From NCBI GenBank assembly GCA_021851885.1, contig JAJZBS010000003.1:1-64000 (forward strand): a stretch of DNA of 64,000 nucleotides, read 5' to 3'. This document shows, in pieces, positions 1 to 6,000 of this stretch. The position numbers were made by a program. Positions within the stretch are counted from its first letter, which is position 1, and every line of letters starts with the position of its first letter. Origin of the DNA: Actinomycetes bacterium. GTDB lineage: Bacteria; Actinomycetota; Acidimicrobiia; Acidimicrobiales; JAMCQF01.

Positions 1-3000
1 CCGATGGCCCGGAGCATGGCCCGTGCCGGGGCACGGGTCGGTCCGTCGGTCACCTCGTGGCTGCGGGGCTTCATCCCCACCAGGGGGGCGTCCGCGGGGT
101 CGGGGGGTCGCGTGTCGGTCATGGCTCGCATGCTACGGGTTGCCGGGGCCCCGGGGCACCCGGACCACCCGATGCGTCCGTCCGGACCGGCCCGCCCGTC
201 GCGATCGGAGGGCGTCGCCAAGGGTCGGAGGCCGGCGGTCCCGTCAGCTGCGCACCCGGACCACCCGGATGGCCATCCGGGGGCAGGCGTGCACGGCCCG
301 GTCCGCATGGTCGGCCAGGTGGGCCGGCAGCGCCTCCCGCCGGATGACGGGGAACCCCCACTCGTCGGTCTCGATCCACTCGGGGAGCAGCTCGGCGCAC
401 GTTCCGTAGCCGTCGCACGAGGTGGGGTCGACCATCACCCGCAGCTCGGCCCGGCTCACCGGCGGGCTCCGCTCAACCGGGCCCCTCGGGGCGCCTGCGG
501 GCGGGGGGCGGCTCCCTGGACCCGCACCGGGGACGGGCGGGGGACACTGCGACCGCCACGAGCGGCGGCCGACGGGCACGGACCGATGTGGAGGTGGTGG
601 TCGACGTGGTCGCCGAAGGCGAGGAGCGCGCTGCGGACCATGCGGGCGGCGCCGTCGGGATGGTGGCACGCCCCGCGCCCCTCGACCGACTCGCACAGCT
701 GGAAGATCCGTGCCTGGAGGCCGCCACCCGCCGGTCCCCCGGCGCCGCCCCTGGTGCCGAAGGCCAACGACGCCGCCGCGTCGGCGAGGGCCGGCAGGCC
801 GTAGGCGCACGGTCCGCACTGGCCGGCGCCTTCGCGTGCGAGGTAGGCGGCGATGGCCGCCACCTCGGCCAGGGGGCACATGGTGGGTGGCGGGGCCAGG
901 ACCACGCCGGCGCCGAAGGTGGCACCGAGAGGTCGAAGGTGCTCCTCGGCCAGAGGCACGTCGAGCACCCGGGCGCCCGCCATCCACGTCCCGCCGTACC
1001 CACCGAGGAGGATGGCCGGCGCCTCGGCGGGGGACTCGCCCAGCGCACTCCAGACGGAGCGGAGGGTGGCGCCGAAGGGGACCTCGATGACCCTCGGCCC
1101 ACTGGCACCGATGGTGACGGTCAGCAGCGCGGTGCCGGGCGACTCCTCCGTGCCGACCGACCGGAACCATGCCGCGCCGAACCGGGCGATCAGTGCGGCG
1201 TGCGCCAGGGTCTCGACGTTCTGCACCAGCGTCGGCCGGCCGTCGACCCCCTTGCGGTAGACGGGGGTGACGGCGGTGAAAGCCGGCAGGGCGCCCTCGC
1301 CGCCGTCGAGGTGGGCGACGACGGCAGACTCCTCCCCGGCGATGAAACGCTCGGGCGCCACCGCGATCTCCACGTCCAGGGGGTCGATCCCGGCCCGACG
1401 CCGCTCCCGGAGCACCTCGGAGAGGTGACGGGCCTCGGATGCGGGTACGTAGAGCACCGCCCGGGAGGCGCCGAGGGTCTCCGCCGCCACCATGAGCCCG
1501 TCGACCACCAGGTGCGGTGCCCGGCGCAGCAGCAGGCGGTCCTTTCCGCTGGCCGGCTCGCCCTCCGAGCCGTTGGCCACCACCACCGGGCGGCCCAGGC
1601 GCCTGGCCGCCACCGCCTCCCACTTGACCGCGGCCGGGAACCAGGCTCCTCCATGGCCCCGCAACCCGCTCCTGTGGAGCTCGTCGAGAAACCCGCCGCG
1701 CCCCCGACGACCGGGATCGGGCACCAGGCCCCACCGGGCCACATGGTCGGCCAGCGCCGTCGCCTCGCCCCGCTCCCCCAGCCCGGCCAGCAGCCGCACC
1801 GCGCCGGTGGGGGGCGCCAACCCGGCGGGCCTGTCGACGGTCCCGGCCCTGCTCATCGGATCACTCCGCCCCGGCTGGGCGACCGGACCGGCACCGGTGC
1901 ACCGGCAGGTGCGCCACGCCCGGGCGACGGCGTGCCCGCGCCGCCCAGCCCGCCGGCGGCGAGGCGGTAGATGACGGCCCCCACCACGGCGACCAGGCAC
2001 AGGAGCCCGAGGAGCTGCACCGGACCCAACCGGGCATCGGTCCCCATGCCGGCGGAGTGGAAGAAGGCGATCGGCCACATCAGGTACGAGAGCCAATGGA
2101 CCATCCGCCACCCGTGGTAACCGATGCGGAACCGGAGCGCGGACGTCACCACCAGCACCAGCATCAGGTCGAAGGCGATCGTCCCGAGCGCCAGCCATGC
2201 CGTCCTGTAGGGGGAGCGGAACGGGACGACCGCGTCGAGGAACCCGACGTGCACGAACCCGTCCAGTGCGGTGGTGGCCACGTGCACGGCGACGAGGACG
2301 GTGGCGAACAGCGACAGGTTCCGGTGCACCGAGCGGGAGAAGAATCGGGGCCACCACGGGGCCGTCCACCCGAGCGTGGTGAGGATGCCGGCCACCACCA
2401 CCGCCGTCAGCACGACCAGGGCGACGATGCCCGTGCTCCGGGTCAGGTACCAGAGGACCATGGGGCTCTGGGACGTGGTCGCTGCCGCTGGCAGTAGGAC
2501 GGCGCCGGTCACGCCCCCACCCCCACGCCGGCCATGGCCGGCAGCGCGCTGCGGGCCACGCCGGTGCCGTTCGGCGGCCGGAGCGCGCCGACGGGCCGGC
2601 GCTCGGCCTCGGCGGGCCAGGCGCCGGTCACCACCACGCCACCCTCGTGACTGACCAGGCGGGCGTCCAACCCGGCTCCGGCGAGCCACTGCGGTGCCGG
2701 GGCGCCGAGGATGAGGGCACCCGTGGCCGCGATGTTGGCGTCGACACAGCTGGCGGCAGCGACCGACACGGTCCGCCACGGGGACTCGGCCGGCTCGCCG
2801 GTGCGGGGGTCGATCAGGTGGTGCACGACCCGGCCGTCGTGGACCCACGAGCGGGCGACGGTGCCGGAGGTGGCCAGACCGCCCGAGGAGACGGACACCA
2901 CCGCGGGTGAGTCGTCGGAGCCCGAGACGTCGTCCACCCCCACCGACCAGCCTCCGGCGGGCGGGGGCCCGGCGGCTGCCAGGTCGCCGCCGATGCAGAC

Positions 3001-6000
3001 GAGGACGCCGCAGCCCACACGCGACGCGATCCTCGCCGCTGCCCGGTCGACGGTCGCCGACTTCGCTGTCGAATCGAGGTCGAGGAGCACGCCCTCTGGG
3101 ACGCGCAGGGTCGAGGCGCGCTGGTCGAATGCCACCGAGACCCACCCGGGAGCCTCGCCCGGGTGGGAATTGGTGCCAGGGCCGGCTTCCCGGGCACCGC
3201 CGGTTCCCCGGTCACCCCGATCGTCCCGGTCACCCCGGCGCAGCCGGGCGAAGTCGATGTCGTAGCCGAGGTCGACGACGGCACGCCCCACGGTCGGGTC
3301 GAGGAGGCCTCCGGACAGCTGGGCGCCGCGCAGCGCGCCGGCGATGAGCTCGCCCAGCTCGGCGCTGACCGTCACGGCCGTCCCGCTGGCCCGGTTGACC
3401 CAGGCCAGCTCCGAGTCGTCCCGGAACCGGCTGGCCACCCGGTCGACCCGCTCGAGCTCGTCACGGAGCATGTCGGCGGCCACCACCAGCGCACCGGGGT
3501 CGGTGCACAGCAGCTCGACCGTGGTCCCGAGGCCACGTCCCACGTAGCGCGCCGGTGCGTTGGGCAGCCCCATCAGAACCCGCTGCTCCCGGTGGACGTC
3601 TGCTGGGGGACCTGGGTGGGGGCCGGTGCCTGGGTCGCCGGAGACAGCGACCCGGAGCCGCCCAGCGACCCGGAGCCGCCCAGCGACCCGGAGCCGGTGC
3701 CGGGGGAGACGACACCCGACGATCCGCTACCGGTCGACGTCTGTGCGGTGCTGGCGCCGTAGTTGTGCCCGGGGATGGCGTGGGCGACGTACGCGGTGAG
3801 CACACCCACCGCGGCAACCGACCCGATGACGACGGTGCGGGTCAACGACCGGACACGGCCGAGGGCGTCGTCACGCTGGGCGGCCCGCAACGCTCGGCCG
3901 TCACGGCGGGACGGGTGCCGGGCCGGCCACGAGTTCTGTGGCGAATTCATGCGCTCACTGTAAGAAGGGGACCTTACGGAGCTATGAAAGAAGTGTAGGA
4001 AACGGCTAAGAATCCGCCGCTCTACGCCCGGGTCGGGGCGGTATGGACCCGGCCGGAGGTGCCAGCCGGGCTCGCGTCGGCACCACGTCACTCCTCAGGC
4101 GGGTGCCACACCCCGGCCGGATGCCTGATCCCAGGGCGCCCGTGGCGGTGCCAGTGCACCGTCATGCTGGCACCCCCGAGGCGGGAGTCACCGACGTGCC
4201 AGCGGCCACCGGTCGCACGCACCACCGAGTCGGCGATGGCCAGGCCGAGCCCGGCCCCACCCGGTTCGTCACCCACCCGGTGGAACCGGTCGAAGAGCCG
4301 GTCCCGCTCGCCCGGAGGGATCCCGGGCCCGCTGTCCTCCACCACCAGGCCGACCCTCCCGCCCGTCGACCACGTCGACACCGTCACGGAACCCCCGATG
4401 CCGGCATGGCGGCACGCGTTGTCGACCAGTACCCCGGCCAGGCGGTCCAACCACTCTCGCGGCGCGCCGACGACGACCGGGGCGTCGGTCACTTCGAGCT
4501 CGAGGGACTGGTCCCTACCCGCCGCCACCGGCGCGAACCGGTCCACGCACGTCCGGGCCACGTCACGCAGGTCGACCTGTTCCGCACCGGGCTCGGGGGG
4601 CGCCCCGTCGAAGCGTGCCAACCACAGGAGTGAGTCCACGATCGACCGCAGCCGCCCGCTCTCGGACCGGACCAGCTCGAGCGAGCGCCGATAGGCGTCG
4701 GGCGATCGGGGCGAGGACAGCGTCAGGCCCACCTCCGCCTCGATGACGCTGAGGGGTGTCCGCAGCTCGTGGGACGCGTCGGCGGTGAACTCGAGCTGGC
4801 GCCTGCGGGCCAGCTCGACGGGCGCCACCGCCTTCACCCCGACGAGCAGCGCGCCGGCATAGGTGAGCACGACGAGCACCGGACCGACCACGAGCTGGAT
4901 ACCCACCAGCACGTCGTGCACATGGTCCACCGCAGCCAGGCTGATGCCGGCGACGACGACACCGCCTGCCACACGCCTGGTGTCGACCCGCAGGATCCGG
5001 CCCCCGGCACTGACGGTGAAGGGCACGGTGCCCGCCCTCGCCCACGCAGCCACGGGAAGCGGTGGTGCCCCCTCGACCTCGGCAACCGGGCTGCCGCCCG
5101 TCGGCACCCACCACAGCAGGACGGGCGCGTCGTCGATGTCCTTCAGGACCTGCTGCGCTCCCACAGGCCCGGGACGGGTGGCGGCCTGGTCGAGCACGGT
5201 CTGGAGGGTCAGGTCGGTCGAGTGGACCAGTCGGACCTCGGCCACCTCGTCGATGACCGCCACCACGGCGAGATACACGAGCCCCACCACCAGCGCCGCT
5301 GTGCCGGCGACTCGGGCGGCGTGACCGAAGCGGCCCGACCTCCTCACCCGGCGACCAGCCGGTAGCCGATACCCCGCACCGTCTCGATGCGGGCCCGTGG
5401 CGCGGCGTCGGCCTCGGGGGCTCCGGCGGCTTCAGCGGCGTCGGCAGCCGCGTTCAGCTTGGAGCGGAGCCGTGCCACGTGCACGTCGATGGTGTTCGAC
5501 CCCACCGCGTCCGACTCGTCATCCCACACCTGGACGGCGATGGTCCGGCGGTCGACGACCGAGGGCGACCGGCGGGCCAGCAGTTCGGCGATGCCGAGCT
5601 CGGTGGCGGTCAACGGCACCTCCCTCCCGGCGACGACCAGCCGGTGACCGGCCGGTTCGTACTCCAATTGGCCGCACACGAGCCGCTCAGCGAGGACCTC
5701 GGGGGGACGTCGTTGCAGGGCGCGCAGGCGGGCCAGCAGCTCGGCGAAGTCGAACGGCTTGACCAGGTAGTCGTCCGCTCCGGCGTCCAACCCGGCCACC
5801 CGGTCAGCGGGCGCGTCCCTGGCCGTCAGCAACAACACCGGCGTGGCGATCCCGCGGGCACGTGCCGCGACGATGACCTCGATGCCGCTCCGGCCCGGCA
5901 TCCGCCAGTCGATGACGGCCACCGCGTACTCGTAGGCGCGCAGGTGGGCCACGGCCGCGTCGCCGTCCGCCACGGCGTCGACCACGTAGCCCTGCTCCCG

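Follow-up and report, generated by a model that had tools for sequence, protein, structure and literature searches.

The closest described systems are gene clusters of Actinobacteria that combine apbE, a cytochrome of the PF01794 family and a NuoF-like gene with PF10589. In the sections of Meheust 2021 drawn on here, 31 such clusters are reported, electron flow from NAD(P)H to the outside of the cell is proposed for them, and a gene for an FMN-binding domain is typical of them (PMC8238504). The same sections count 670 genomes with ApbE but without a known substrate, and further substrates were expected (PMC8238504).

The window analysed here is a stretch of 64,000 nucleotides of contig JAJZBS010000003.1 from an Actinomycetes bacterium (Acidimicrobiales; assembly GCA_021851885.1). 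Its operon is of this published type, with a PF01794 gene in the apbE cluster and a NuoF-like (PF10589) donor, but it holds no gene for an FMN-binding domain and has a fold-free tail protein in that place. The inclusion filter of Meheust 2021 called for an ApbE or FMN_bind protein with a signal peptide or lipidation site; in this operon no such protein was seen. Our reading, to which we give a probability of roughly 0.58, is that this 125-aa protein (the tether), composed of one helix and an unstructured linker, binds ApbE through its tail and receives covalent FMN there, replacing FMN_bind as the outer carrier. Its slot, its conservation, its exclusivity with FMN_bind, AlphaFold and a model of the complex give good support to two points, namely that in these operons the tether partners ApbE and that it lacks a folded domain. 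The genome-wide survey's note had described it as the likely ApbE substrate, without a folded domain; partnership and lack of fold stand on this evidence, whereas an Asn in the ApbE metal site and the enzyme's lack of a leader had been overlooked.

Operon layout in the window

Five genes on the minus strand, overlapping by 1–4 nt, encode the ferredoxin, NuoF-like protein, MsrQ-like protein, ApbE and the tether:

244..459, minus strand: small ferredoxin (PF13459), start taken from the GTGA overlap
456..1856, minus strand: NuoF-like protein (PF01512 and PF10589)
1853..2512, minus strand: MsrQ-like membrane cytochrome (PF01794), start taken from the GTGA overlap
2509..3573, minus strand: apbE, 354 aa (PF02424, E = 2e-47)
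3573..3950, minus strand: tether gene, 125 aa, whose stop overlaps the apbE start (TGATG)
4088..5347, minus strand: sensor histidine kinase, with a relative in 61/80 loci
5344..6060, minus strand: OmpR-type response regulator, with a relative in 57/80 loci

The MsrQ-like protein has four conserved His residues and is a short form, without the outer domain of most relatives. A scan for promoters and terminators returned no match. Contigs of RNA library X1, 90–99% alike, span most of positions 1–3936, and one bridges the tether/apbE junction, while none covers the kinase region 4489–5712; these contigs come from one study and possibly from DNA, and thus show neither transcription nor its level. 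A second tether gene (116 aa) lies on contig C135. The survey's statement that both operons carry the gene stands as to presence, but on C135 a 328-aa membrane gene separates the tether from apbE.

The tether family and the slot before apbE

Both copies have the basic N-terminus, single hydrophobic helix and S/G/T/P linker that the survey had ascribed to a gene of 116–125 aa. In the window protein a basic N-terminal region is followed by a helix at residues 17–58 (hydrophobic at 40–59), an S/G/T/P/A linker and the tail TSTGSSGF. Three elements stand out:

3762..3908, minus strand: conserved stretch at the N-terminus (R-D-x-A-L-x-R-x-R-x-x-T, hydrophobic helix and x-P-G-H), which by itself served as search profile
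3639..3647, minus strand: L102-S103-P104, conserved about 20 residues from the end, predicted second dock on ApbE 273–278
3582..3593, minus strand: tail motif T120-G121-S122-S123, with S123 as predicted FMN acceptor

The linker, described earlier as not alignable, could be aligned in part (L-x-P-P...P...V-x-S-G-x-S). The window gene matched no Pfam or NCBIfam family, profiles for FMN_bind, DUF2271 and DUF3570 matched none of 58 tether members or 13 other ORFs in the slot, and a search of the ESM Atlas returned solely unnamed actinobacterial clusters. AlphaFold predicts one helix and no folded domain (pTM 0.32).

The search profile comprised the N-terminus alone, with the tail excluded, so the motif test is not circular. 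Among 80 NuoF-like loci, all close kin, 73 have apbE, as the survey had counted; the 7 loci without it and 4 with apbE at a contig end are cut off, leaving 69. The tether lies directly upstream of apbE in all 69 (one identical to the window), and 63 end in [ST]G[GAS][ST], a stronger association than the survey's short motif ORF near apbE had implied; three more hold the motif behind a frameshift or indel, and three intact relatives lack the motif Gly. Loci present in duplicate and, where so indicated, the copy in the window are not counted; nor is locus L164 from an unpublished genome (G088), on which none of the claims depends. More widely, the profile found 501 clusters at 50% identity. Seven of 15 non-self matches in the family search, those with E above 4e-4, were unusable (six unrelated, one a broken copy without apbE). 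True tether–ApbE fusions were rejected, as the long matches (L044, P0025, P0120 and P0152) are frameshifted read-throughs. The slot also holds unrelated N-termini with similar tails in 12 actinobacterial families: across these, in a sample of the phylum, the upstream ORF ends in [ST]x[GAS][ST] in 34/43 loci with apbE and an MsrQ-like gene versus 200/3388 ORF ends, under a rule relaxed after the tails had been seen. Locus L110, where the apparent tail lay in a wrong reading frame, is not among the 34.

FMN_bind is absent from all 80 NuoF-like loci, in agreement with the survey, and the genome's sole match to it is in the C139 operon, which, as noted there, has no tether family member. In another ApbE group FMN_bind occupies the slot before apbE in 18/20 loci, and none of these 20 loci has a hydrophobic tail ORF; one FMN_bind site of this group, VDVVSGAT, ends exactly like some tethers. 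No FMN_bind match was found in 26/36 tether genomes. DUF2271 was found in none of these 26 and weak RnfD-like matches in 2; a DUF3570 search gave 0/26 but is uninformative, as it matched no control genome either.

The tail motif and the modelled complex

Compared with the canonical ApbE motif, D-x-x-[ST]-G-A-[ST], the tails keep Ser/Thr at –3, Gly at –2 and the acceptor Ser/Thr (63/69 loci; 118 of the best 150 family clusters), but not Ala at –1 or Asp at –6. Among 126 tails containing [ST]G, position –1 is Gly in 56, Ala in 37 and Ser in 26, the window copy having Ser; Ala stands there in 23/69 loci. Asp at –6 occurs in 0/126, bearing out the survey's remark on the missing upstream Asp. Its narrower tail consensus, V[ST]SG[AS][ST], is found in 24/69 relatives and in neither copy of this genome (TSTGSSGF and AVSGGTSW). 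Some lineages have tails that end in a Cys-bracketed loop. The Asp has been called essential (PMC10722498), while a review, in the part cited here, gives D-to-A a minor effect and a 7-residue terminal tag as sufficient for ApbE (PMC12052999). Substrates in the cited papers have Ala at –1, unlike most tether tails.

Of the six-frame ORFs of this genome (G000), 110/20,427 (0.5%) end in the motif. At the 80 loci the operon strand has 63 family and 14 chance ORFs, and the other strand 9 family paralogues and 12 chance ORFs; these strand and genome controls are equivalents, made without gene calls, of the survey's 68 versus 12 and 19/3224. No conserved motif was found in ApbE, the MsrQ-like protein, the NuoF-like protein or the ferredoxin (best column 13/78), and these were rejected as ApbE substrates.

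In the predicted tether–ApbE complex the tail is at the ApbE active site with an ipSAE of 0.93, versus 0.00 for the best of three controls, which include no scrambled or low-complexity tail. This level was reached by 116/157 solved and 2/215 mismatched pairs, counts that hold roughly here. Runs share at least 93% of contacts, with partner pLDDT of at least 81. Tether residues 118–120 are placed along ApbE strand 209–213 with G121 beside the ATSG motif, and L102–P104 forms the second site. Among the fold-search matches listed, none of 19 ApbE entries names a bound peptide. Covalent flavinylation of the tail, on which this docking model bears, is likely.

The hydrophobic helix

At the end of the helix is a site resembling those cut by signal peptidase, which raises the possibility of a free arm in place of an anchored one. 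We consider it unlikely, though, that a flavinylated tail is set free by cleavage as a soluble or wall-trapped flavopeptide of about 65 residues that shuttles electrons. Small residues occupy –3/–1 before xPG in 64/79 copies (SxA 33, AxA 14, GxA 11, SxS 6), with a possible site after Ala58 in the window protein, and hydrophobicity is moderate (median best 19-residue Kyte–Doolittle mean 1.73), both as expected of a cleavable helix; in 11/79 copies, that on C135 included, position –1 is nevertheless Glu, Asp or Gln. RR occurs within the first 40 residues in 61/69 tethers and the genome encodes TatC, which would suit Tat export, yet a strict Tat pattern fits just 2/69, and the first Arg of RRD is replaced in 24/64. 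The N-terminal region is moreover conserved beyond what a plain signal peptide needs. In the favoured reading the helix may serve as an anchor, and the topology is probably N-in/C-out: basic residues number a median of 6 before the helix and 0 after it, a bias that favours C-out.

An altered, leaderless ApbE

The window ApbE is a PF02424 member by profile and fold (TM-score 0.70–0.79 to solved ApbEs), with predicted flavin transferase activity. It keeps K171, S236, R241, H252 and T284, but the Mg-binding Asp is replaced by N280. Among 90 cognate ApbEs, the equivalents of Treponema pallidum K165, S240, R245, H256 and T288 are found in 90, 90, 90, 90 and 89. At the D284 position, mapped by sequence alignment, all 90 have Asn, and the cognate ApbE lacks E244; a sister group has Glu (30/31) and mostly Lys for T288. 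A quick tree of the ApbEs is used descriptively. D284A abolished transferase activity of the T. pallidum enzyme in the part of that study cited (PMC4436053). No signal peptide was seen on the cognate ApbEs, judged by eye from the N-termini, and the first strand begins at residue 8. This is a difficulty for the reading, as enzyme and tail have to meet: the tail may receive its FMN while still in the cytosol and be exported afterwards, or the enzyme may leave the cell along with its partner.

The invariant Asn would fit an arrangement in which the tether stably anchors ApbE or accompanies its export, with ApbE and non-covalent FAD as the redox subunit and the tail a pseudo-substrate. The start/stop overlap of tether and apbE in 58/66 loci, the large two-site predicted interface (about 190 contacts) and the non-canonical motif point the same way. 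A hydroxyl is kept at the acceptor position in 119/126 tails, with Ala once, however, and the catalytic K, S, R and H are invariant; FMN_bind genes likewise abut apbE, and neither the copy on C135 nor any of 10 divergent paralogues is coupled to it. We judge this arrangement quite improbable.

Less credible again is that another group (AMP, phosphate or a sugar) is attached to the tail, or that the tail lies on the cytosolic side and connects NuoF/ferredoxin with the inner heme. The altered metal site and missing signal peptide of ApbE would allow it, as would the Ser/Thr-rich linker, of a kind that actinobacteria O-glycosylate. The charge bias, the retained FAD-site residues of ApbE and the tether's place in the FMN_bind slot next to the cytochrome all speak against it. 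That the tail merely reflects low complexity (linker 82% S/G/T/A/P) or the ribosome-binding site and start codon of apbE (last codon biased to AGT/ACT by the overlap) is largely refuted: architecture-matched ORFs of G000 end in the motif in 2/78, every motif position varies synonymously, an SD-like word occurs in only 13/60 tails, and 9/10 paralogues not followed by apbE keep the motif.

Proposed electron route and its implications

Under the tether reading, NADH would reduce the NuoF-like protein (FMN, 4Fe-4S), which would pass electrons to the ferredoxin and on to the MsrQ-like protein with its two hemes. From these, in the direction we infer, electrons would reach FMN on the tether tail and then an acceptor outside the membrane. 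The neighbouring ApbE would have transferred this FMN to the last Ser/Thr of the motif (S123 in the window). As a tentative generalization, which we regard as somewhat doubtful, a large group of actinobacterial ApbEs that have no leader and whose metal site is remodelled may make fold-free flavopeptides: they would bind a two-site tail in the cytosol and put FMN on a non-canonical [ST]x[GAS]S end, the product being exported as a long swinging arm or released as an electron shuttle encoded by a gene.

The tether is a concrete and widespread substrate candidate (501 clusters in one family plus unrelated look-alikes), invisible to domain searches. If the leaderless-ApbE reading is true, part of the "orphan" ApbE genomes would be accounted for. 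A flavinylated tether would be a natural flavin redox carrier on a bare peptide and a new fold-free electron route outside the cell, minimal for extracellular electron transfer in actinobacteria of soil and acid habitats; the ApbE motif would be broader than the canonical form. For protein labelling, the Asp-free tag together with its ApbE could offer an orthogonal pair.

Comparison with known flavinylation systems

Our literature searches found no description of a tether substrate, although Supplementary file 1 of Meheust 2021 may list these ORFs unannotated. The survey's claim of a new class must be tempered: an unstructured C-terminal extension is flavinylated in ApbE-associated FMN_red proteins, according to the parts of Huang et al. 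2024 cited here (PMC11334425). Those are folded flavoproteins, however, with the flavin in their binding site, whereas the tether is predicted to have no folded domain. The engineered Flavin-tag, in the cited parts of its reports (PMC12052999; PMC9400968), is likewise a short terminal peptide, but an artificial one with the canonical motif and a V. cholerae-type enzyme. Trypanosomatid fumarate reductase, as far as the cited sections describe it (PMC8065229), resembles the tether case in its natural terminal motif, Ser acceptor, tolerance of s/g at –2 and intracellular ApbE domain; its motif differs in being N-terminal, fused to the enzyme and in keeping Asp and Ala. Actinobacterial FMN_bind (PF04205) proteins, such as that on C139, share with the tether the slot before apbE, a basic and hydrophobic N-terminal segment, an S/T/P linker and often a V-S-G-A-T site. 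Unlike the tether, they are built around a folded domain, with Ala retained at –1 and in most cases Asp at –6, and their ApbE partners belong to the group in which the Mg-binding Asp and the Glu are conserved.

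Operon and tether genes

Five minus-strand genes open the window, neighbours overlapping by 1–4 nt, with kinase and response regulator genes upstream.

Minus-strand operon at the window start
Window start, minus strand: ferredoxin (PF13459)
Window start, minus strand: NuoF-like protein (PF01512, PF10589)
Window start, minus strand: MsrQ-like protein (PF01794)
Window start (2509–3573), minus strand: apbE (PF02424)
Window start (3573–3950), minus strand: 125-aa small ORF, the tether (no Pfam match)

At the very edge (1–125, minus strand) lies the start of a gene cut by the contig end, presumably encoding a dihydroxy-acid dehydratase-like protein. 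The tether ends in QQTSTGSSGF, and its stop codon overlaps the apbE start. A 116-aa copy on contig C135 of the same genome ends in AVSGGTSW, and a 328-aa membrane gene sits between it and apbE. In both tethers [ST]G[GAS][ST] is followed by two further residues and the stop; the tail V[ST]SG[AS][ST] claimed by the genome-wide survey's note fits neither TSTGSSGF nor AVSGGTSW. The same note placed FMN_bind in the apbE operon of contig C139, where it indeed lies beside an MsrQ–NAD fusion and a distinct ApbE. An 18-nt tandem repeat (window 3640–3695) encodes GSLGGS units of the tether linker, its copy number varying among close relatives (profile matches P0014 and P0018).

Conservation of the tether slot

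A search profile was iterated from the N-termini of the two tethers only, leaving the tail unselected. Among 80 loci retrieved around NuoF-like relatives (Acidimicrobiales and near relatives, L001 matching the window identically), 69 have 600 nt or more upstream of apbE, and in every one of these 69 the profile detected a tether immediately before that gene; the remaining 11 are cut by contig ends. These loci are kin, hence counts are not independent and are given without a p-value. The 69 tails comprise SGSS (26), SGAS (12), SGST (6), SGAT (6), TGAS (5), SGGS (4), TGSS (3), TGGS (1) and six without the motif, three of which have it behind an indel while three end differently (VVSSVS twice, VQSTTS). 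As background, the motif ends 0.5% of six-frame ORFs and occurs in 2 of 78 architecture-matched ORFs. Tail codons vary synonymously, indicating that the constraint acts on the protein. The profile finds 501 clusters (50% identity), and the motif ends 118 of the best 150, many misses appearing truncated or frameshifted. All eight clear non-self matches in a 401-genome phylum sample lie directly before apbE, seven ending in SGGS. The tether is a real, widespread and unannotated partner of ApbE.

A second, divergent copy occurs in ten of the loci, and in nine of these it ends in SGGT plus 2–3 residues. This paralogue (tail VVTSGGTSR, Thr-rich linker) is divergently transcribed upstream of the response regulator in 10/80 loci.

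Divergent tether paralogues
About 1900–2450, minus strand: L035, L037, L051, L060, L065, L070, L071, L073, L076, L079

Further loci came from 40 of the 150 best PF02424 matches listed, at the lower-scoring end, and from the 30 loci whose ApbE most resembles that of the window. Under a rule loosened post hoc, once the tails were known, an upstream ORF ending in [ST]x[GAS][ST] within 3 residues was present in 34 of 43 non-duplicate apbE and MsrQ-like loci (12 families), against 200 of 3388 ORF ends. Many slot ORFs share the plan and have unrelated N-termini, with tails SSGAS, TSHGS, TKSRAS, TTTHAS and SSQGS. Most of the nine misses have near-variants, a Cys-bracketed loop or the gene displaced by one position downstream, and a single one has nothing of the kind. 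Cys-bracketed loops (e.g. C-x-T-T-P-S-G-x-x-x-C), possibly disulfide-closed acceptor loops or thiol redox tails, end the slot proteins L163:2442–2825, L124:5363–6595 and L166:758–1483, and P0170–P0173; the L163 ApbE has a very long branch (2.16). Disordered ORFs whose tails are rich in Asp/His (...GDD, ...DDD) lie upstream of apbE in L102, L105, L125, L136 and L165, in some cases arranged in tandem with tethers. In L155 (genome G069), ferredoxin directly follows apbE and both the MsrQ-like gene and the tether are missing, a joint loss in one genome.

In the C139-related ApbE group, 18 of 20 loci have FMN_bind in this slot, and no hydrophobic tail ORF was found. FMN_bind matches are absent from 26 of 36 tether genomes, 21 of the 26 being at least 90% complete; DUF2271 occurs in none of the 26, and two have weak RnfD-like matches. 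No conserved motif was found in the other operon proteins. A weak RnfD/NqrB-like match (L147; genome G249, C1:440545–441249) lies ~2 kb downstream of a tether–apbE operon.

Tail motif and ApbE active site

Several observations on tail and enzyme weigh against the flavinylated-tether reading. The tether protein departs from the canonical ApbE motif at two positions. Asp at –6 is found in 0 of 126 tails, and position –1 is Gly in 56, Ala in 37 and Ser in 26. Numbered by alignment to T. pallidum Ftp, tether-type ApbEs keep K165, S240, R245 and H256 (90/90) and T288 (89/90); Asn replaces D284 in 90/90, and E244 is absent. The sister group has Glu (30/31) and mostly Lys for T288, and six FMN_bind-type enzymes checked have canonical residues. 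According to PMC4436053, D284A abolishes transferase activity. The invariant Asn suggests a site retained yet altered. No leader was found in tether-type ApbE, and the C139 ApbE also appears leaderless; cytosolic ApbEs are described in PMC12052999.

Structural models

AlphaFold models of 58 tether members predict one helix (17–58) plus coil (pTM 0.32), supporting the claim of no folded domain. ApbE itself is modelled with confidence (pLDDT 89) and resembles solved ApbEs. When ApbE, FAD, Mg and the 31 C-terminal tether residues were modelled together, the complex scored 0.93, against 0.00 for the best of three controls, none a scrambled tail; the score mark is reached by 116/157 solved vs. 2/215 mismatched pairs, a calibration only rough here. 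Contacts agree between runs to at least 93%, with a partner pLDDT of at least 81. In the model, tether residues 117–120 run along ApbE strand 209–213, T120 and G121 contact T235 of the ApbE ATSG motif, and the interface includes K171, G195–D197 and R241. L102–P104 of the tether dock on ApbE 273–278, which would explain the conserved L-x-P-P of the linker. Among the ApbE structure entries listed, no title names a bound peptide, making recall of a similar complex unlikely. The model supports binding of the tail to ApbE and says nothing on chemistry.

Proposed membrane attachment and electron path

Covalent flavinylation of the tail, anchored and released forms together, is quite probable. We favour a flavinylated tail on an anchored tether (probability roughly 0.58), as the survey's note had proposed. 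In 64 of 79 copies a signal-peptidase-like site closes the helix, whose hydrophobicity is only moderate, so anchoring is putative; the same two features would fit a flavinylated tether that is released, which we consider unlikely.

Electrons would most likely pass from NADH through the NuoF-like protein to ferredoxin, and then through the two hemes of the MsrQ-like protein to FMN on the tail. Four MsrQ-like His are conserved in 77–78 of 78. A median of 63 residues (51–103) follows the helix, an estimated arm of ~20 nm when extended. Most MsrQ-like relatives (L081:3082–4311 and the majority of L003–L080) run to ~386 aa, the additional length comprising one more helix, a linker and an outer, beta-rich domain without Pfam match, which is absent from the window copy.

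A two-component system lies beside most of the 80 loci. A conserved membrane protein (L081:4740–5726; C135:41239–42225 in the window's genome), with a relative weakly matching cytochrome b561 (PF01292), occurs in 39/80 loci; this second cytochrome b-like gene may provide a second transmembrane path. An exported NAGPA-like protein (PF09992) occurs in 29/80 loci, including L081:6920–8224 (C135 tether operon) and L082:874–1995 (C139 FMN_bind operon).

Relation to known flavinylation systems

By the working definition of PMC8238504, the operon belongs to the MsrQ-like clusters, NuoF subtype, and it also works like one. A domain-free ApbE substrate was not found described in the literature covered, from which subscription journals were mostly missing. 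The tether protein belongs to none of the FMN_bind, DUF2271 and DUF3570 families. FMN_red C-terminal extensions (PMC11334425) are a partial precedent for its tail, as are, also in part, a trypanosomatid N-terminal motif (PMC8065229) and engineered tags (PMC12052999, PMC10722498, PMC9400968). The tether is probably a fold-free flavin carrier.
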